DNA of 64,000 nt from an uncultured Planctomycetota bacterium (lineage in GTDB: Bacteria; Planctomycetota; Planctomycetia; Gemmatales; Gemmataceae): NCBI GenBank assembly GCA_963849325.1, contig CAWKHF010000004.1, positions 256,001-320,000 on the forward strand, written 5' to 3'. The notes under the pieces were generated by a model. It worked only from the letters and a program-made list of their open reading frames with translations. It searched no databases and was not told where the DNA came from. Made by a program: the position numbers and the translations under genes. Each line of letters opens with the position of its first letter. Position 1 is the first letter of the stretch. This document shows, one piece after another, positions 52,906 through 64,000 of the stretch.

Positions 52906-54761
52906 ATGGATGTGCGGCGGTGCGGGGTGATGGGGCTGTCGGACGGGTCGGTTCTCTGGCGAGTGTGGGCGTCGCGCGTCGGGCGAGTGGACCTGGTGCT
53001 CCTCGACGGTGCGCAGCGCCGCACTTATCCGATGCAGGCGGAAGAGCATGGCTTCTTTCATTGCAGCTTGCCGGACGTGCGCGAGGGACAGCGCTACGCC
53101 TATCGGCTGAACAATGGGCCAGAGCGTCCTGACCCTCGTTCGTTGTGGCAGCCGGAGGGCGTTCACAACCCGTCGGCCGTCGTCCGTCCCGAGCGCTTCG
53201 CCTGGACCGACCACGGTTGGAAGGGCGTGCCGCGCGAAGACCTGGTGTTCTACGAGCTGCACGTCGGCACCTTCACTGCGGAGGGCACCTTCGCGTCCGT
53301 CATCCCGCGTTTACCTCAGTTGCGTGAACTGGGCGTGACGGCCGTGGAACTGATGCCGGTCGCGCAGTTTCCCGGCAGCCGCAATTGGGGCTACGATGGC
53401 GTCCATCTGTACGCGGCGCAGAACAGCTATGGCGGACCCTACGGTCTGCAACGGCTGGTGGACGCTTGCCACGCGGCCGGGCTGGCGGTCTTCCTCGACG
53501 TGGTGTACAACCATCTCGGGCCGGAGGGCAACTATCTCGCCGAGTTCGGAACGTACTTCACCGAACGCTATCACACCTCCTGGGGCTCCGCCCTCAACCT
53601 CGATGGACCCGGCTCCGACCCCGTGCGCGACTTCCTCCTCGATAACGTCCGTCTCTGGATCGAAGATTTTCACTTCGACGGCCTGCGCCTGGACGCCGTC
53701 CACGCCATTTTCGATTCGCGTCCGCGCCACATCCTCCGCGAGATCAAGGAGGTCGCGGACGCCGCGGCGCGTCCAGGACAACGCATTCACATCATCGCGG
53801 AGAGCCTGGTGAACGACGTGCGCATGGTGCGGGCGCCCGAGGGCGGCGGCCACGGTCTCGACGCCGAATGGAACGAGGATTTTCACCACGCGCTGCACGC
53901 TTACCTCAGCGGCGAGCGGCACGGCAAATATGGCGACTTCGGCGCCACCTCATGCTTGTCGCGCGTGCTGGAGCACACCTTCCACCTCAACGGGATTTAC
54001 AGCGTCCACCGCGGCCGGCGCTGGGCGCCCCCGACGAGGGGCTGCCGGGCGATCGCTTCGTCATCGGTATCCAGAACCACGACCACGTCGGCAACCGGCC
54101 GCGCGGCGACCGGCTGGCGGCGCTGGTTGGCCCGGCGCAGCAGCGCCTGTCCGCCGCCCTGATGCTGCTGTCGCCGTACCTGCCGCTGTTGTTCATGGGC
54201 GAGGAGTACGGCGAGACGAACCCCTTTCCCTTCTTCTGCTCGTTCCACAACGGCCCGTTGATCGAGAATGTCCGCCGCGGACGCCGGCGCGATTACGGCT
54301 TCGCGGCGGGGGCGGAGATGGCCGACCCGCAGGCCGAAGCGACGTTCGCCGCCGCGCGCTTGAGCTGGTCGTGGCCGGAGAATTCGCTTCGGGCCGGACT
54401 GCGTCGTCTGTACCACGATTTGCTGGCGGCGCGACGGCGTTGGCCGGCCCTGCGCGACTTCACGCACCGCAGCGTTCGCCTACTGCCGGACGAGAACGCG
54501 GCGGCCGTCCTGCATCTGGTGCGCGGCATCGGCGGCGCGGCGGCGGAGCTTCACGCCTACTTCAACTTGACGGAACAGCCCCAGCCGTTGCCGAATGCGA
54601 TGGGTGAGGAGAGGAGTTTGTTATTCAGCTCGGAGGCGGAGCGCTATCACGGCAGCCGGACGAACGCGATGGTCCCGAAGCAGCTGAAACCTTATGAATG
54701 TGTCGCGCTTGGGCCGGCCGCGTGGGGGATGCCGATTGTCGAAGAACAACATCTCGTTTAG
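52906..54761 (+). CDS. treZ: Malto-oligosyltrehalose trehalohydrolase (GH13), frameshifted near 54030
   Basis: [56 protein letters not shown]. Confidence 0.92.
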
Positions 54762-54823
54762 CCGCGACGCGCAGCAGAGCGCGGGAGCCTCCCGCGCTCC
54801 GCTGCGCGTCGCGGCTAAACGAG
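54753..54823. repeat. REP-like palindrome, family A
   Basis: Inverted repeat; supplies the treZ stop codon. Confidence 0.85.
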
Positions 54824-54857
54824 TAACTTGTTTTTCTCCAAACCCAAACCATGCGCG

Positions 54858-56181
54858 TTAGGTCAACTTCGGCAGCACGCCGCCGCCGCAGAAGTCCGGG
54901 TTGCCGAAGCGCTCGATGCGATGGCCCATGCCGTGCGCCAGCGACAGCAGCAGCCGATTGTGCGGCAGCTTGCGGATACTTGATCGAGCGGCCCATGCGG
55001 AAATCCAGGCCGTTGCCGACCAGCACGAACGGGATGTTGTCGAGCGTGTGCGAATTGCCCTTGCCCAGCTCGTTGGTCCAGACCAGCAGCGTGTTGTCGA
55101 GCAGGCTGCCGCCGCCGCCCGGCTCCGGCGTCTCGGCCAAGCGCTTCGCCAGGTAGGCCAACTGCTCGCAATACCACTTGTTGATCTGCGTCAGCTTGTC
55201 CTGGGCGACCTTGTCGCTGTCGGGGCTGTGCGACAGTTCGTGATGGCCCTCGTTGATCTTCAGCCAGCGCATCCGCGCCTGACCGACCGAGTTGGTGAAT
55301 TGCAGCGTCGCCACGCGGGCGAAGTCGGCGGCGAAGCTGTTGACCATCAGGTCGATCTGCATCTTGCTGATGCGCGGGATGTTGTCGTTCTCCTTCTTCA
55401 CGCCCGGTTCCAGCTCGGGAACGGCGTGACCGACGTCCTGGTTCTTGCTCGCCTTCAGCTCCTGCTCCATCTCGCGGACGAACGTGGCGTGTTCGTCCAG
55501 CAGTCGGCGATCCTCGGCGCTGACGGCGGAGCTGACCTTCCGCAGGTCGTCCTGCAGGTCGTCGAGAATGCTCTTCAGGCTCTCCTGGTCCTTGACCCGG
55601 CCGTACAGCTTGGCGAACATCTGGTAGGGATCGTCGATCGGCGCGATCGGCTTGTTCGGCCCGGCGTAGACCATGCGCGTCCAGGTGTCGGCGCGATCGG
55701 GCACCATCACGCCGAACTCCAGCGAGCCGAAGCGCGTGCGCGTCGCCGGGTTGGCCTGCAGATGGTTCTTGATCTCCTGGTCGATGGAGAGACCGCTGGC
55801 CCAGCCGGCCGGCGTGTGCGAGCCGCCCTGGATGTTGCCGGGGAACAGCTCGATGCCGGTCAGCAGGCAGCCGATGCCGCGCATGTGGTTGTCGCCGTCG
55901 CCGCGGACCTTGTCGCAGACGCCGTGCAGGATCAGCGTGCGGTCCTTGAACGGCTCCAGCGGCTTGAGGCTGTCCTTGAGCGTCGTCAACGTTCCCTTCC
56001 TCGTCGGGCCAGAAGGCGGAGGGCACGACGCCGTTGGGGCTGAACAGGACGACCAGCCGCTGTTTGCGCCGCTGTTGGTTGGCGAAGCCGAGGCTGGGCA
56101 GGTTCAGGATGAACGGCAGGGCCGCCGCGCCGATCCCCAGGTCGCGGATGAACTCGCGTCGCGTGCTTGTTGCACGGTCAC
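54858..56181 (-). CDS. DUF1552 family protein with Tat-like signal; frameshifted
   Basis: RREFIRDLG signal, [37 protein letters not shown]...GNSH. Confidence 0.8.
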
Positions 56182-56219
56182 GTCACTCCTCCGGAATACG
56201 TCAGGTCTACCGTATGTCA

Positions 56220-58639
56220 GGCCCGTGTTGATTCTATCGACTCGCCGTCCCGGCTCACGCGGCACCGGCGGCTTAGGCTTTTCCTCATCGGGAATCCAGG
56301 CGGACTCCGCGACGATCTCCACCATCAGCTTACGGACATTGTAGCGATTGTCGGATACGAAGGACCGCCGCAGGTCCGACGAGCTTCGTGCAGGTCCGTA
56401 GGCACGGATCGGCTGCTTGACCAGGTAGTGGAACAGCTGCTCGACAAAGGCGTCGTGCGTCTCCTCGCTGTCGGCCAGGAACGCGGCCAGATCGCGGACG
56501 CCGGTGAACTTCCTCATCTTCGCCGCTGCGCGTCTGGTAGATGCCCGTGGCGTCGATGGGCCGCTCTTTTTCCTGGTCGCGGTAGCGGCCGATGGCGTCG
56601 AAGTGCTCCAGCGTGAAGCCGAGCGGGTTAATCATGCCGTGGCACGTCTGACACGCCTGCGGCCGCGTTTGCAAGCTCGACGCGCTCGCGCGTGGTCAGC
56701 CGTGGGTGCAGGTCCGGCGGCAACGGGGTGAAGGCCTCCGGCGGCGGCTGGAGCGTCCGGCCCAGGACGCTGCGCGACAGGAAGACGCCGCGATGGATCG
56801 GCGAACTGGTCGCCGTGTAGGCGAAGGTCGCCATCAGGTAGGGGTGCGTAAGCACGCCGGCACGCTCGCCGGCTTTCGCCGCGACCTTTCTGGAACGGCG
56901 CATCGGGCGGCAGATCGCCGCCGTAGAATCTGGCCAGCCGGCCGTTGAGATACAGGGAATCCGCGAGCAGCAGTTGGCGGAAGTCCGATGCCTCGCTCCA
57001 GAGCACGTCCTCCAGGAACAACTCCAGCGAGGTGCGCAGGTCCGAGGCGACCGCCTGAGTCGAAGCCGGGGATAGCTGTGCGGAGTCCTTGGACAGGTCG
57101 GGGACCTGATCGACCTTGCAGCCACTGCAGGAAGAACTCGCGGAGCTTGGCCCGGGTCCGCAGGTCGGCGACCATGCGCTCGGCCTGGTGCAGCCACCTG
57201 CTCGCGGGTGGCACAGCTCGGCCGCTCGCCGCCGCTTGCAGAAGCTCGGCGATCGGGCAGCGAATCCCACAGTCCGAAGGAGAGTCCGCGACGCCACGTC
57301 GTAAGCGTCTGGCCCGCCGCCAATCTCGCGGTAGAGGAAACGCGGCGACTTGAGGACGAGCAGCACAACGCGCTTGACGGCCGTTTCCAGATCGCGGGCG
57401 GCTTCGAATCTGGTGATCGACGTAGAGGCGCTTCTGCTCGTCGCGTGAGCGGCCGGCGAAACGCCCGTCTCGGCGAAGCGTACGACAGAACTCGCGGAGA
57501 CGCGCCTTGCGATCCGGCGGCATCGTCCGCGCACGCCGGCCAACTCCGCCAGGCGGGCGACGACGTAGTCCGCAACCTCGATGGCCGCATCGGTCGTGGC
57601 CTGTTCCCACGCCTTGGAGATCGACGTGCCGCGCTCGTAGCCGACGCTGCGGTCGTCCGGCGGAAACGGCGTGGCGACGACGAACGCAACGGGAGAGGCA
57701 GTTCGGCGTCAGGTTTCGCTGCGGGATCACCTCCGCCGTCCGCTGCGGCGGCTTCCACGCCAGCGCGATCGACGCCTTGACTTGCGGGCGGCTTGCCCTT
57801 CTTGTTCTTCGAGTCGTCCACGCCCTGCTTGGCCTTGGAGAACTCCAGCCGCAGCGGATAGACGCGCCCGCCCAGCAGGAAGATCGAGGCGCGATACTCG
57901 GTATCGTTGCCCGACTTCACCCAGGCGTCGATCAGCGGCCGTTTGCGTGTCGTTGACCCACAGCCGGGCGGCGTGCTCGGTGCGGACGATGAATTCGTAA
58001 CTCGCCGGTGTCCGGGGCCAGGACCGAGCCCGTCCAGCGGATCGAGAATTGATTGGCGTCGAACTTCTTGGGGTCCGGGCCGGACGTCGCCGAAGTCGAA
58101 GCGGACCTCGGGATCGACGCGCTCCAGGACGCGGTCGTTGCCGCGGAAGCGCCGGGACTTGAAATACTCGCCGCGCAGGCCGCGTTGCTGGTCCCAGTGG
58201 CTGGGCGTGCGGAAGCTGCCGATCAGGTCGGCGACGGCGTTGCCGATACTGGCGGACGGTGAGGCGCGACAGCTCGATGCGCGGCGGCTTGTTGCGGGCC
58301 TGCGCGGTCTTGGAGTAGAAGGCATCGTAGATGTAGGCGGCGACTTTCTGGGCGTCTTCGCCGCTGCATTTGTCGTCGGTGTCCTTGGGCATGGTCCGGG
58401 CGATGAGGCGGGTGAGCTGGGAAACGGAGCGATCCCCGGCCAGCGGACGCGGGTAATCATCAATCGGTGCCTTCTCCCGACGCTCCATGACACGAGGCGC
58501 ATTGCTGCTTGTAAATCTGTTCTCCGCTACGACCTTCCGCGGCGAGGACGCGGGGGGCCAGCATGCTCAGAGAGCACAGCAGGGCCATCCAGGGTAGGTG
58601 GCGGAGAGGGGACACGGTTGGCGGATTCGTGTGGATCAT
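56220..58639 (-). CDS. Cytochrome c-PA14-DUF1592/DUF1588 multidomain protein; heavily frameshifted, 3' end approximate
   Basis: Manual translation from 58639: MIHTN...GEQIYKQQCASCHG; PA14-like GLRGEYF; SPRFLYR; SSPIHRGVF; CQTCHGMINPLGF.LEHFDAIGR. Confidence 0.75.
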
Positions 58640-58997
58640 GGAGACCGATTCGGGTAGGCCGCTACGAAATCAGGAGGTCGGAAGGCAGGTCAACACTCAC
58701 CGAGGCGCGTCGTCCGCGAACTGGAGGGAAAAATGTCCGGGATGCGGCGCCGAGTGCTGATAAATAGTTTGAAGGCTCGGGGGACGAATGTCAAGGGGAG
58801 AGACGGAAAAGGTCCATTCCTCCCATCCCGTTGTTGCATCGACTGTCTGTTGCCGAAGAGAGACGAAGTTGGTAGGTGCCGCCAGCCGAGCGGCACGGCG
58901 GAACGATACAGCTATCCGTAACCGGCTCACGCGGAGCATGGCGTCGAAGCACGATACACCATCATTCACGTGGTCGGTCTGCTTGTATGTTCCATTT

Positions 58998-59160
58998 CAC
59001 TCCCGATTTCTTGTCGGGAGTATCCTCGACAGGGGAGTCGCGAGGAGGTCTTTCGGTCTGCTGAGGTACGACCTCTTGCTGCAGATTGACCCCTCCGCGT
59101 CGGACCCAGCGCTGGTTACATCTTGAGGCACTGACCTCTGATCACAAGCTTCCGCTCACG
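58998..59160 (+). ncRNA. IS110 bridge RNA (5' hairpin, target-binding loop, donor-binding loop)
   Basis: LTG TCGGTCTGCT 59053-59062, RTG GCTGCAG 59078-59084, LDG GTTACATCT 59115-59123, RDG ACAAG 59144-59148. All match the element flanks or ends. Confidence 0.8.
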
Positions 59161-59233
59161 CCGAGCTACGCCGGAGGAGCCTCGCGGCTACGGCCCCATC
59201 GTCTCCCTCTTCACTCCACATTCCGAGGTTCCC

Positions 59234-61042
59234 ATGCTACCACAACACGCTCCCGCTCCGCAATCGCCGCGACGCATCGGCGTCGGCATCGACACCTCCC
59301 GCTACGGCCATTACGCCGTCTTCCTCACGCGACGACCTCCAGCCCGCCGCCGACGAACTCTCCTTCCCCGAGTCCGCCGCCGGCTACGCCCTCTTCCGCC
59401 AACGCCTCGCAAGCGCATCGTCCAGCGCTACGGCGCCGTGCACTTCGTCGTCCGTCTCGACGTGGCCGGACCCGTATGCCGACAACCTGCTCCACTTCCT
59501 GCACCAACTCGGCCACGCCGCCAGCCGACGCCCGCCAACGCCGCCCGCCGTTGGCCCTCACCCTCTCCTGCGGCGATCCGCAACGCAACAAGAACTACCG
59601 CGCCGCCCTCTTCGGCAGCCAGAAGTCCGATCCCGTCGAGGCCCGCGCCGCCGCACGCTTCGCCCTCACCGAGCGAGCCACGCAGTGACAAGCCATTGTC
59701 CCTGCGAACTCCGCATCCTCCGCCAGGTCGCCGGCCGACTCCAGGCCGTCGTCCGCCAACGCACCCGCCTCCTCAACCAGTTCCATCATCTGCTGGCCTT
59801 GACCTTCCCCGAACTGGCCCTGCTCACCAAGGACCTCGCCGCCGGCTGGGTCCTCGAACTGGTCCACCGCTACCCACCGCCGCCGCGCCTGGCCCAGGCC
59901 ACGACCCGGCCGACCTGGCCGCCATCCCCTATCTGCCCGATGACCATGGCGACGCCGCTGCTCGCAACACGCCCAGCACCTCCATCGCCTCGCTGGACGG
60001 CGCGGCCGTCGAGGAGCTGGTGCGCGACCAGGTCCGCCAACTCCGCGACAGTCGGCGCGCGGCAAAAACGCCTGGAATACCTGCTGGTTTCCGCCTATCA
60101 CGCCCTGCCCCAGACCAACCACCTCGACACCATCCCCGGCATCGGCGCCGTCACGGCCGCCGTGCTGACCGCCTTCATCGTCGACATCGATCGCTTCGCC
60201 ACGCCGGGCAAGCTGGTCGCTTATTTCGGCGTCCTGCCCATCGAGGCGTCCAGCGGCGTGGACCGCGACGGCCAGGCCGCGTTCGCCGCGGCGTTGGGTC
60301 ATGAGCCGGCGCGGCAACGACCTGGTGCGTCGCTATCTGTGGATGGCGGCCTTGAGCGCCATCCGCTTCAACCCGGCGGTGCGGGCGTTGTACGCCCGTG
60401 TCGTGGCCAAGCATCCCCAGCACAAGGCGGTCGCCGTCGGCCACGCCATGCGCAAGCTGTTGCACCTGGTCTTCGCCATCTGCAAGAGCGGCCGGCCGTT
60501 CGACCCCGACCACTATCCCTGGCAGACGCCGGCTCACGTCGACGGAGAGTGACAATGACATGTCAGTGGATGCACCGAAGCCAGTGACAAGACCGTGTCA
60601 GTCGAAAGCCAGGCCGCGGGCCACAAGCCGGAAGCTGAGCCGGCTGCGGACAGTGGTCACCGCGGCCTGTGCCGACAGCGTAGCCGAGACGGCCGCGGTC
60701 GGCGAGAGCAACGCCGTCGATTTCGCCCACGTCAAGAGGCAACTGCCGCTGGCCCAGGTGCTCGATCAACTGGGTCTGTCGGCGCGCCTGCGCGGCAGCG
60801 GTCCGCAGCGCCGCGGTGCCTGTCCGCTGCATCGCGGCGATGGCCGCGGCCGGACGTTCAGCGTCAACCTGGAGGCCAACGTCTTCCAGTGCTTCGACAA
60901 GACGTGCGGTCAGAAGGGCGACGTGATCGACCTGTGGGCGGCGTTGCATGGCTTGTCGCTGCGGGAGGCGGCGTTGGACCTGGTGCGGACGTTTGGGCTG
61001 GAGCCTGCGCCACGCACCGGAACAGAGAAGAGGAACGGTTAA
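59234..61042 (+). CDS. IS110 recombinase (RuvC-like + Tnp20) with probable C-terminal CHC2 zinc-finger extension; multiple frameshifts
   Basis: IGVGIDTS, KSDPVEA, LDTIPGIGAVTAA, YFGVLPIEASSG, RRGNDLVRRYLW, AMRKLLH; then CPLH...CFDKTCGQKGDVIDL. Confidence 0.85.
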
Positions 61043-61204
61043 GGAACGGTTGACCGCGTCGGTGGAGAGAATCCGCCCTTGGGTCGGGGCCGTCCGCATG
61101 TGCGCAGACAGGACAGAGGAAACCGTTCTTACCGGCCGTCATCACGGGGACGGGGCTTGACATTCATCGTTACATCTGCAGCGGATTGTTCGGCGCTACC
61201 CCCT

Positions 61205-61684
61205 TCAGAAAACAAGAGGCTTACCGACCCCCAAGGAACACTCGACAAGCGCCGCCATCTGAGCGGCAAACTCACGGACCAACCCTGCCATCCCCTGCTG
61301 GACGCACGACATCGCTTGTAGCGCTCCCACCTCGGACGGCAAACTTTTCACCTCTTCGACGGCGAGGAAGTCTCCTGCATGAGTGCCATTGTACAGCACC
61401 TTGGAGAGCAGCAGCGGGAACGTCTCGGCCTGCCGCTCCAACTCCGCTCGCAGGGCGGCGACCAGCGCGATGTTGCCGATGCGGTGGTGCAGCAACACGC
61501 CCAGCTCGTGCTCGCAGGCGCGCTCGAGTTGCCATCGGTCAAAGGCGAGCTGGACCTCAAGGTCGTCGCTGCCGCAGAGCAGGCTCCCATCGGCCGAGAC
61601 GGACAGGTTACAGCCGGGCGGCGGTGGTTCTCGCAAGCGTCCCCGCTCGAAGCAGTCGCAGTACACAACCGCGTCCAACCCCAT
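61205..61684 (-). CDS. Hypothetical cassette-encoded protein (159 aa)
   Basis: MGLDAVVYCDCFERG...ACEHE...RIGNI...YNGTHAGD...KPLVF; fills the cassette tightly between the R box and attC. Confidence 0.75.
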   Translation of the reverse strand: MGLDAVVYCDCFERGRLREPPPPGCNLSVSADGSLLCGSDDLEVQLAFDRWQLERACEHELGVLLHHRIGNIALVAALRAELERQAETFPLLLSKVLYNGTHAGDFLAVEEVKSLPSEVGALQAMSCVQQGMAGLVREFAAQMAALVECSLGVGKPLVF

Positions 61685-61860
61685 CTCTGCTTCGCTCCGC
61701 CTCGCCGAACAGTGATTAGTCTGAGGCGGGGCGTCTCGCGGCCTCATTCGTGGTGGTCCCTCGTGGACCCCGTTCGGAAGTTTGCCCTTCCTCACGCCAC
61801 GTTGCGCCTCCGCCGGCCTCCCACGGTTGTCCCACGAACTCCTCTATTCTGAAGGCTCCC

Positions 61861-63319
61861 ATGTCCCGGCACAAGCACCAAACCGCCTCGTCCGCCCCCA
61901 GGCAACCCGCCACGCCCGTGGCACCGCAACGCCGCCGTCACACGCCCACTCCCGCCGACGACGGCTACCACGAATCCCTGCCCATTCAGCACGGCCACGC
62001 GGCCGGCATCGACGTGGGCTCACGCACGCACGGGGTCGCTGCCCCCGCAGCAGACGGCACCCTGGACGTGGCCTGCTTCGACACCTACACCGAGGGACTA
62101 CGCGCCCTGGCCGCCTGGCTCCATGCCCACGCGGTCACCACCGTGGCCCTGGAGGCCACCGGCATTTACGGCGATCCCCTCTTCGATCTGCTCCCAAGCC
62201 AGGGCTTTGACGTCATCCATGTCAACCCCGCCTACACCGCCCAACTCCAGGGACGGCCCAAGACCGACAAGCTCGACTGCCAGTGGATCCAACGCCTGCA
62301 CGCCCACGGCCTGCTGCCCGCCTCCTTTCGGCCCGCCGCCGATGTCGCCGTACTCCGCGTCTACCTCCGTCAGCGGGCCGAACTCGTCCGCGCCGGTGCC
62401 CGACACATCCAGCACATGCAGAAGGCGTTGGAGTTAATGAACGTCAAGCTGACCGAGGTGGTCAGCGACGTGACGAGCTGGACCGGCCTGAAGATCATCC
62501 AGGCCATCCTGGACGGTCAACGCGACCCGCTGACGCTGGCGCGACTGCGGAACAAGCACTGCAAGAACAGCATCGATACCTTCGCGCGTGCCCTGCAGGG
62601 CAGTTGGCGTGACGAACACGTGCTGACGTTGCGGCAGGCGTTAGCATCGTGGCAGCACTATCAGGCTCAGCAACGGGAGTTGGAGGAAGCGATCGCCCGC
62701 CACCTCCATCGGATGAAAAAGACGACCGCGCTGCCGCCGCTGCTGCCCAAGCCGCGACGGCGGAGCCGCGCGGCCAACGAACCACGCTTCGACGTGCGAA
62801 CCGCCCTGTACTACGTGACCGGCGTGGACTTGACCGAGTTGGACGGGATCGCCGACGTGACGGCCTTGGTGGTCGTCAGCGAGATCGGCCTGGACATGAG
62901 CCGTTTCCCCTCCGCGAAGCACTTCTGCGCCTGGTTGGGGTTGTGCCCGCGGGTGAAGAAATCCGGAGGTCGGGTCTTGTCGAGTCGGACGCGCAAGGGC
63001 AAGGGCGCCGCGGCGCGGGCCTTGTGTCTGGCGGCGCGGTCGTTGTGGCGCAGTCCAACGGCGTTGGGTGCTTTGCTGCGGCGGTGGAAGGCCCGCTTGG
63101 GGGCGCCTGCGGCGATAACCGCGGTAGCGCACCGAGCTGGCTCGGCTGCTGTATCAAACCTTGAAGACGGGGGCGTTGCCGGCCCGCGAGACGGCGGCGG
63201 CGTATGCGGCCCGCCAGCGGGAGCAAGCGGTGGCAACGTTGCGGAAGAAGGCGTTGCGTCTGGGTCTGCGCGTGGTAGCGACGAGTGAAATCGTGGAGAG
63301 CGTAGCGTCGCCGCCATGA
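61861..63319 (+). CDS. IS110-family transposase (second clade), frameshift near 63133
   Basis: AAGIDVG, ALEATGIY, KTDKLDCQWIQRLH, LDGIADVTA, WLGLCPRVKKSGGR; continues ...LARLLYQTLKTG...SPP*. Confidence 0.9.
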
Positions 63320-63503
63320 ACGATAGCGGGTGCGGCATGGCCCGAGGTTCGCCCAGGGAGACGAGCAAACAAGGCCCGATCACAGCAAGCGACAGCGAGG
63401 GAGACCGCTTCGGTTCACGGCGGAGCGTCCTTGAGTGCGCACAGCAGTCAAAGATAGAATAAGTCTTCTGAAGAAGCTCCTCGGAAGGCCGCGCAGATGA
63501 GAC

Positions 63504-63535
63504 CGTGATAGGCTGCGCCTGCGCAGCCTATCACG
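63504..63535. repeat. Perfect 15-bp-arm palindrome CGTGATAGGCTGCGC-CT-GCGCAGCCTATCACG
   Basis: Read directly from the sequence; just outside the proposed right end of the outer IS110. Confidence 0.7.
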
Positions 63536-64000
63536 AAACAACGCCGACCTCGGAAAACGCCATTACTTCTTGGATGGACTAGGGTTGCGCTAAATGATGC
63601 GCAATCTTCTTCCCCTGCTAGGCCGCACAGCGGTCACAGAGCGAGGACTTTGCTATCTCGCGCTCGCGCGCGATAGCATGGGAAAGCGCTTTCCCACTGC
63701 TGTCGAGGATGGACCCCAAAGACAGCATCCTTTGACCGCGCACACCCCGCTCCATCCGGTAAGCCCGACTCTATCCGCTGGCCAACGGCATGGCAAGAAA
63801 AAACCGACACGATTTCCGCGGTTGGGATAGGGTGCGTGCCTTCGGGTAGTTCCTGTTTGCCCTCGTTGCCCAGCTCGACTTCCCGTCCGGTCAGGGACCG
63901 GCCGAGAAGCAGCGCTTCGCCCACGGACGTTGCCCAGCCGAGCGGGGCAACGAGGGTCTACGGCCCGACACTCCAACGATCCGAAATGATGGAGCACTCG

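Follow-up and report, generated by a model that had tools for sequence, protein, structure and literature searches.

The window analysed here is a stretch of 64,000 nucleotides from an uncultured Planctomycetota bacterium (G000:C4:256001-320000, where G000 is the source genome assembly, 84.7% complete). It contains two genes for transposases of the IS110 family of insertion sequences (IS), both on the plus strand, with an open reading frame (ORF) on the minus strand between them (61205-61684). A preliminary description of the sequence had taken positions 58855-63493 to hold a three-layer nesting, in which one IS110 element had entered the attC site of an integron cassette, and the cassette had split the left-end RNA of another IS110 element. 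The letters quoted for this (58876-58903 and 61710-61750) read as they were given; the three-layer reading fails at its outer layer. It is very probable that the locus consists of four independent things lying side by side, namely a unit resembling repetitive extragenic palindromic (REP) elements, a cassette, an IS110 element within the cassette (the inner element) and another IS110 element to its right (the outer element), and that there is no split RNA. For comparison, G000 and 60 relatives, 61 genomes in all, were searched at the DNA level for homologues, and 14 further control genomes were added for the integrase.

The cassette and its attC-type site

The sites in question were described with an attC profile, which was built from 20 uninterrupted sites (18 of them out of G000) and searched with nhmmer. 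Read on the minus strand of the window, the consensus consists of GCCGAAC, a spacer of 5 nt, GCTGCAGCAGACCGG, a hairpin that varies, CCGGCTGCTGAGC, another spacer of 5 nt and GTTCGGC. In the 20-site alignment GAAGGAG stands after the 3' box, and on the 5' (L'') arm the L boxes are longer by two bases. The attC sites of integrons are laid out as R'', L'', L' and R', with two extra bases on one L arm and with the ribosome-binding site of the next cassette. The consensus matches this plan, and the sites are therefore read as integron attC sites; their identity as such rests on the present profile and not on IntegronFinder. When the 20 sites were folded together by RNAalifold, the L-box stem alone was recovered.

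In G000 the profile has 51 matches (E ≤ 0.01), 18 of which are its own input sequences, and nine same-strand pairs are found among the matches, with 0.6-1.6 kb between the members. The 51 sites are scattered singly or in same-strand pairs and triples, for example at C12:1173389-1174135, C12:1498852-1499769 and C5:64289-67237. A unit of about 740 bp that ends in an attC-type site occurs in four copies, 97-98% alike (C5:66500, C5:713183, C7:539699 and C12:959487). A two-box regular expression run across G000 gave 44 matches, many of them false, and the profile search was used in its place.

In the window, a cassette-like unit lies at 58904-61710 on the minus strand and is bounded by GTT-type core boxes. 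Within it the order is core box, Shine-Dalgarno-like sequence, ORF and a 103-nt attC-type hairpin. The proximal core box (61704-61710; GTTCGGC on the minus strand) complements R'' perfectly and is also the left flank of the outer element. The ORF (61205-61684, minus strand) is intact and encodes a conserved hypothetical protein of 159 aa; its ATG is 19 nt past the proximal core box, and its stop is 9 nt before R''. The attC-type hairpin is present in two parts, separated by the inner element and both on the minus strand. The proximal (5') part at 61178-61195 consists of R'' (GCCGAAC, 61189-61195), the spacer and the start of L'', and the distal (3') part at 58898-58981 consists of the rest of L'', the variable hairpin, L', the spacer and R' (GTTCCGC). 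The distal box (58898-58904) differs by one letter from the proximal box and belongs to the spacer of the REP-like unit.

The cassette ORF has 276 homologues (E ≤ 0.001). Among the best 120, almost every one has a length of 159 aa and is covered over 100% of it. No family in Pfam or NCBIfam was matched by it. The few named relatives come from Planctomycetes, Verrucomicrobia and one myxobacterium, and the others are hypothetical proteins without names.

By their order and spacing, these features support the interpretation of 58904-61710 as a putative integron-type gene cassette in linearised form. The unit proposed earlier at 58904-61709 is thus borne out with its boundaries, through the core boxes, the 159-aa ORF and the attC-type hairpin. 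At both proposed crossovers there is a 7-nt box ending in GAAC, GCGGAAC (58898-58904) and GCCGAAC (61704-61710). The coincidence of the distal core box with the REP spacer suggests either that the cassette was inserted at a GTT secondary site in that spacer, or that it stands at the end of a former array. By the profile, the window holds one full attC-type site and one bare core box. A motif search of the window for single attC boxes returned 7 matches where 5.5 were expected and was uninformative.

The inner element and its target

The inner element occupies 58984-61175 on the plus strand (2,194 bp counting one CT) and is antisense to the cassette ORF. Homologues were found in G006, G026, G023, G036, G008, G009 and G012; the homology begins at window positions 58969-58979 and stops at 61183-61196. 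The ends of the element were set by homologous copies with differing flanks in G006, G026, G036, G009 and G008 and at C7 of G000. The CT core dinucleotide is present at both junctions (58982-58983 and 61176-61177, plus strand), and the left junctions at eight loci together with four right ends follow the pattern ...GGTCTG-CT-(element)-CT-GCAGCG-N4-GTTCGGC. The site also has two relatives without an insertion (L013 and L014; G008:C139 and G055:C151), both with a single CT in the form GGTCTG-CT-GCAGCG. The left flank is attC-like, that is, a long imperfect hairpin of one family, at five of the eight loci, and there is a further copy at C10:225721. The right flank CAGCG-N4-GTTCGGC is common to the window and the G006 copy, while the C7 copy has CAGCG followed by a weaker box.

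The profile matches the window at 58901-58983 on the minus strand with 34.6 bits (model positions 30-108), and this match ends at the insertion. When the two flanks of the inner element are joined in silico, a full-length match is obtained (59.4 bits, E = 2.3e-20, positions 7-108 of 120), and the restored site of 103 nt folds into a single long bulged hairpin. Together with the two empty sites, the restored site supports an insertion of the inner element at the CT core in the L'' box of the cassette's attC-type hairpin, as the comparison of flanks would have it. The earlier proposal that the inner IS110 element had hit the attC of the cassette is upheld in this respect.

The left non-coding end (58984-59233, plus strand) is a candidate bridge RNA or seekRNA, with stems at 59047-59091 and 59109-59151. 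An alignment of the left ends of six copies gives a consensus fold of 71 pairs, five of them with a compensatory change, in which both stems have internal loops. The first stem (59047-59091) contains CGGTCTGCTG and GCTGCAG and so repeats the target on either side of CT. The second stem (59109-59151) contains GGTTACATCTTG (59114-59125), which equals the right end, CT and the left end. The inner left end would therefore choose its site in the manner of a bridge RNA or seekRNA; the matches to target and donor are there to be read, and from them we infer that the RNA is expressed and active.

The inner transposase gene (59234-60552, plus strand) is broken in the window copy, in which Pfam recognises only pieces of PF02371. 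The 596-aa protein of G006 aligns to it in four pieces lying in three different frames. An ORF for a CHC2 (DnaG-type) zinc ribbon follows at 60560-61042 on the plus strand (PF01807, 35.3 bits). Intact copies have single frames of 596-631 aa in G006 (L002:1757-3544), at C7 and in G036, and the 596-aa protein of G006 combines PF01548 (40.3 bits) and PF02371 (75.9 bits) with a C-terminal PF01807. The score of this lineage against NF033542 ('IS110 family RNA-guided transposase') is 122.6, under the cut-off of 140. The three-domain fusion of PF01548, PF02371 and the zinc ribbon is found in 116 of the best 120 database relatives, and a literature search found no paper combining 'IS110' and 'CHC2'. 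Among 72,556 plasmids searched, 2,635 records match the fusion transposase, all with less than 60% identity (the 15 best listed with less than 30%), and none covers 80% of it. Within G000 a second copy of the inner element at C7:283559-285474 is 89% identical over 1,937 bp and has an open frame of 599 aa. It is without the entire left end and the start codon, its homology beginning 15 nt inside the ORF.

The outer element and the order of insertion

To the left of the cassette, a REP-like repeat unit lies at 58871-58896, with an internal hairpin at 58876-58896 that has a 7-bp stem, and is followed by the spacer GGCGGAAC (58897-58904). The last 7 nt of this spacer (58898-58904, GCGGAAC) are at the same time the distal core box of the cassette. 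The unit occurs at 21 distinct places in G000 with at most four mismatches, as six inverted pairs and nine singles, and copies are also found in G026, G010 and G003. A spacer ending in GCGGAAC follows the unit in four of the seven copies shown, the window included. In the seven copies whose surroundings were examined, no IS110 end stands beside the unit except in the window. The '5' hairpin' that had been assigned to the outer IS110 element thus has a real 7-bp stem, but it is the palindrome of this dispersed unit and no part of the element.

The outer element extends from about 61712 to 63487 on the plus strand. Its shortened left end (61712-61860) consists of about 10 nt resembling a terminus and of the 3' half of a left end. 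The transposase gene (61861-63320) has an apparent frameshift near 63131, so that the C-terminal 60-odd residues lie in another frame, and its product is matched by PF01548 (71.1 bits), PF02371 (63.6 bits) and NF033542 (223.7 against the cut-off of 140). The right non-coding end (63321-63487) was placed by its likeness to the right end of a related element, IS-B, and its end is approximate (± 5 nt). A BLAST search of 58500-64000 against the whole genome found no second copy of this right end in G000. The flank from 63489 (CGCGCAG...CCG) is faintly like the next attC box.

The only other copies of the left end found in G000 by BLAST are at C12:511327-511665 and C5:954039-953702, which are 92% alike over 339 bp. 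Both are relics, consisting of a left end (286-287 nt) and 14-18 codons. C12:511475-511677 is 91% identical to window positions 61713-61913, and C5:953891-953704 is 94% identical to 61713-61900. Upstream of the point corresponding to 61713 the relics run on for about 138 nt (C12, 511336-511474; C5, 954029-953892), which are absent from the window copy and find no match in window positions 58500-61712. In all three loci a CGAAC box stands within 2-3 nt before the element: GCCGAAC-AG in the window (61704-61712), GCCGAAC-AA at C5 and GTCGAAC-TA at C12. The relics thus abut a CGAAC box as the window copy does, which puts the outer element's left junction at about 61711-61713, with the cassette outside.

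With the junction there, the element does not start at 58859 as had been stated, and the cassette does not split its bridge RNA, as the 138 nt of the relics are unrelated to 58859-58903; homologous left ends unrelated to that segment are what the preliminary description itself had named as evidence against its proposal. Excision of the cassette would restore no RNA, since the cassette lies to the left of the junction, and the suggestion that the outer element could move cassettes finds no support.

The letters that follow the box in the window resemble the left terminus of the relics (in the TTAG form), and about 10 nt further on the internal sequence of the relics sets in. The left end is accordingly 148-149 nt long in the window against 286-303 nt in relics and relatives, and falls short of a full end with two guide loops. 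On the simplest reading, about 138 nt would have been deleted between short direct repeats, one of them at the left terminus and the other a similar word inside the left end. Judged by its position, the missing half should be the one holding the target loop.

Two related elements bear on this reading. IS-B (1,951 bp) is present in two copies 99.5% alike (G000:C5:67226-69176 and G000:C1:446138-444191) with a left end of 303 nt and a fixed right end, and its protein is 54-59% identical to the outer transposase. IS-C of G002 (about 1,868 bp) is present at four loci, with both ends seen in three, and has a left end of 288 nt. In IS-B, IS-C and the C5 relic the left-terminus word recurs at +140 to +147, at an equal position in the alignment, and such a word would look like what is expected of a donor-matching guide. 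Words of equal length recur in 39, 83 and 104 of 1000 shuffles for IS-B, IS-C and the C5 relic, each a weak result, and the C12 relic is null (669 of 1000). The argument from recurrence rests on the equal alignment position in three subfamilies rather than on the individual scores. A strict search for terminus repeats with 9 of 10 letters matching gave almost nothing. The C5 copy of IS-B lies in an attC-type site, few nucleotides from the position used by the inner lineage (...GGTCTGCTGCA|), and the C1 copy lies in a long tandem-repeat region.

Under the reading of four independent things, the cassette would have been in place first, at a GTT borne by the REP-like unit. The inner element would have entered at the CT core in the L'' box of the attC-type hairpin, in antisense orientation. 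A second, unrelated IS110 element would have inserted beside the proximal core box of the cassette, most likely after the cassette had arrived, and this outer element would have lost about 138 nt of its left end. The presence of the outer lineage beside a CGAAC box in all three loci indicates that the proximal box is its target flank. At C5 the flank of the relic is 80% identical over 425 bp to a stretch of C9 that adjoins an uninterrupted site (C9:297296-297403). With this homology and the position beside the box in three of three loci, the history in which the cassette came first, and either IS element then entered the sub-site that it prefers, is the most economical.

The other order, in which the outer element came to lie beside the REP spacer first and the cassette was later put by an integrase into the intervening GTT, would also involve no split RNA, but it is improbable. 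It fits the derivation of the distal box (58898-58904) from the REP-like unit, seen in four of seven REP copies, with the cassette at a REP-borne GTT, and it fits the lack of a recognisable attC remainder to the right of the outer element. Moreover, two REP spacers of G026 run ...GGAACAC, with TG next in one of them, which is near the ...GGAACAGTG that is obtained when the window is rejoined. This order, however, needs a chance landing of the cassette within 2-3 nt of the element's end, while adjacency to the box is seen at three of three loci in the family and is explained by target choice if the cassette came first. The present flank GCCGAAC also suits the family better than GCGGAAC, which is one letter off. 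If the outer element did come first, excision of the cassette would rejoin the REP-like unit and the IS element.

Several observations weigh against the four-part reading as a whole. From 63488 onward no attC remainder can be recognised to the right of the outer element, so that of its target only one half is known. The junction AG (61711-61712) fits exactly neither the termini of the relics (AAC and TAC) nor their internal context, and the reference left ends belong to relics and not to whole elements; a search of the 60 related genomes found no close relative of the outer element in full length. No second full attC-type site was detected in the window with the profile. The profile sites were chosen by a motif search, and the 51 matches in G000 lean to that subfamily. 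No integron integrase in G000 scores above the TIGR02249 cut-off (best 85 bits against 265, in an assembly 84.7% complete), and no tyrosine recombinase was found in the window. Both transposase copies look inactive, although their frameshifts may be assembly errors rather than decay. The neighbouring genes of planctomycete type (54625-58502) appear broken across overlapping frames, which suggests indel errors in the assembly, so that the transposase frameshifts may be artefacts; one of the two IS-B copies, 99.5% identical to each other, is frameshifted too. Indel errors of this kind do not account for the roughly 138 nt missing at the left end.

The lack of an integrase in the G000 assembly is also what would be expected if the hairpins were other structured extragenic repeats targeted by IS110 elements, instead of attC sites, and the 159-aa gene an ordinary chromosomal one. 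The occurrence of the sites singly or in twos and threes, and in no one long array, points in the same direction, and an Rfam scan of 56000-64000 (E ≤ 1) gave zero matches. This is nevertheless quite improbable. The sites follow the attC plan in their inverse core boxes, in the asymmetry of their L boxes and in lying directly behind a stop codon and ahead of a Shine-Dalgarno sequence, same-strand pairs have cassette-like spacing, and the ORF family spans Planctomycetes, Verrucomicrobia and a myxobacterium, to judge by the names given. Integron integrases above the curated cut-off are present in 16 of the 61 genomes, which include G006 and G008 from the genus of G000, and in none of the 14 controls. 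Profile matches lie near intI in two of five neighbourhoods: in G021 four are found 5.5-11 kb upstream of intI and on the opposite strand, and in G019 there is one, on the unexpected side. In two of the neighbourhoods scanned the contig breaks off next to intI, and G060, a distant genome, has zero matches.

The original proposal, by which an outer IS element at 58859-63487 had its bridge RNA split by a cassette at 58904-61709 and the inner element entered the attC later, is hardly credible: core boxes ending in GAAC do stand at both proposed crossovers, a single cassette inserted at a secondary GTT site would appear in just this way, and rejoining places a hairpin ahead of the part of the left end that is conserved, but 58871-58896 is a dispersed REP-like unit, the C12 and C5 relics have about 138 nt unlike 58859-58903 and themselves abut a CGAAC box, the related elements have left ends of 288-303 nt without such a hairpin, rejoining would give a left end of about 196 nt, shorter than the 286-303 nt of the family, and the genome has zero matches both for the proposed empty site (at most three mismatches) and for a cassette-free junction of 40 nt (at most five mismatches). 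The complementarity adduced for it exists, with CGCGGCCT at 61737-61744 and AGGCCGCG at 63486-63493. A match of 8 nt, in either sense, between the 148-nt remnant of the left end and 63475-63505 nevertheless arises in 313 of 2000 shuffles (16%), and AGGCCGCG occurs 13 times and CGCGGCCT six times on the plus strand of the window. The GAAG remarked at both ends is there as well (58855-58858 and 63484-63487), but a shared 4-mer carries no weight.

Relation to known systems and surroundings

PMC3001079 and PMC11187229 describe an IS1111-attC group (ISPa21, ISPst6, ISKpn4 and ISPa25) with DEDD transposases and with insertion into attC that is specific for site and orientation, near the 5' end and in antisense to the cassette; the guide-RNA region of IS1111-type elements is located downstream of the transposase (PMC11187229). 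Subterminal inverted repeats also belong to the IS1111 layout. The inner element resembles that group in its location in the L'' box of attC, in its specific orientation and in having its transposase antisense to the 159-aa ORF. It differs in the IS110-type position of its long non-coding region, which carries the target and donor words and is placed upstream, in the C-terminal CHC2 zinc ribbon, in the planctomycete-like soil host and in the low identity of its transposase to plasmid-borne IS110-family genes (below 30% for the best ones listed).

In PMC11208160 and PMC11187229, IS621 and ISEc21 represent the IS110-type layout of bridge RNA or seekRNA, with an upstream non-coding end and a preference for structured repeats. 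Both elements of the window resemble them in a transposase of PF01548 and PF02371 (broken in the inner copy of the window and complete in G006). The lack of terminal inverted repeats and the preference for structured repeats would be further traits of the IS110 type shared with IS621 and ISEc21. The inner element in particular has a CT core at both junctions and an upstream end with two internal loops that match target and donor. Its target is an attC-type site, in contrast to the REP element or linear site given there for IS621 and ISEc21. Other differences are the zinc-ribbon fusion and the NF033542 score of the inner lineage, and about 138 nt are missing from the left end of the outer copy.

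For cassettes outside integrons, insertion at secondary sites is named among the origins in PMC4889954. Compared with the attC-site clusters that have no integron integrase (CALIN) and the single attC sites treated there, the cassette of the window is alike in combining an ORF with an attC-type site, in having no integrase nearby and in belonging to a genome rich in such sites. Only one complete site is detectable in it, where the definition of a CALIN asks for two, and an IS element has occupied the bare core box that forms its second boundary.

The presence of insertion sequences in attC sites is nothing out of the ordinary; the lineage in which it occurs here is unusual. Homing to attC is known for IS1111-type elements of Klebsiella and Pseudomonas, whereas here it concerns IS110-type elements with an upstream guide in a planctomycete-like soil genome. 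A cassette that switches a bridge RNA off and on would have been remarkable, and it is not there. What the locus does offer is a natural case of a guide whose target and donor words can be compared directly with an attC site. The zinc-ribbon fusion family is large and may carry an extra module for reading DNA, of possible use in the engineering of bridge recombinases. IS elements that home to attC inactivate the sites they enter, and they may freeze cassettes in place.

It is doubtful that several IS110-type lineages of soil planctomycetes have upstream guides each tuned to a different sub-site of attC, that the CHC2 ribbon could read folded or single-stranded attC, and that the loss of about 138 nt was self-inflicted, by recombination of the donor end with the guide DNA. 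The sub-sites may then be the L'' box for the zinc-ribbon lineage, which may be the most abundant, the L''/R'' spacer for IS-B and the spacer on the R' side for the outer lineage.

The flanks of the locus (58700-58870 and 63500-63700) have zero matches among the 60 relatives. Among public runs, only three soil-metagenome runs, all from one study, contain 5-6% of the sampled words. At 90% likeness the inner element is covered in these three by short contigs of relatives, which are uninformative as to the structure of the locus and to excision. Repeats abound in the window's right flank, which is non-coding. Palindromic repeats of about 125 nt, like miniature inverted-repeat transposable elements (MITE), are found in the window at 63872-63965, at G000:C5:953543-953667 and at dozens of places in the genome, and one copy of them cuts off the left-end relic at C5. 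Another MITE-like family of about 140 nt, represented at C5:952000-952140, also occupies dozens of places in the genome. Immediately to the right of the outer element, at 63506-63535, stands an inverted repeat with perfect 14-bp arms and a loop of 2 nt.

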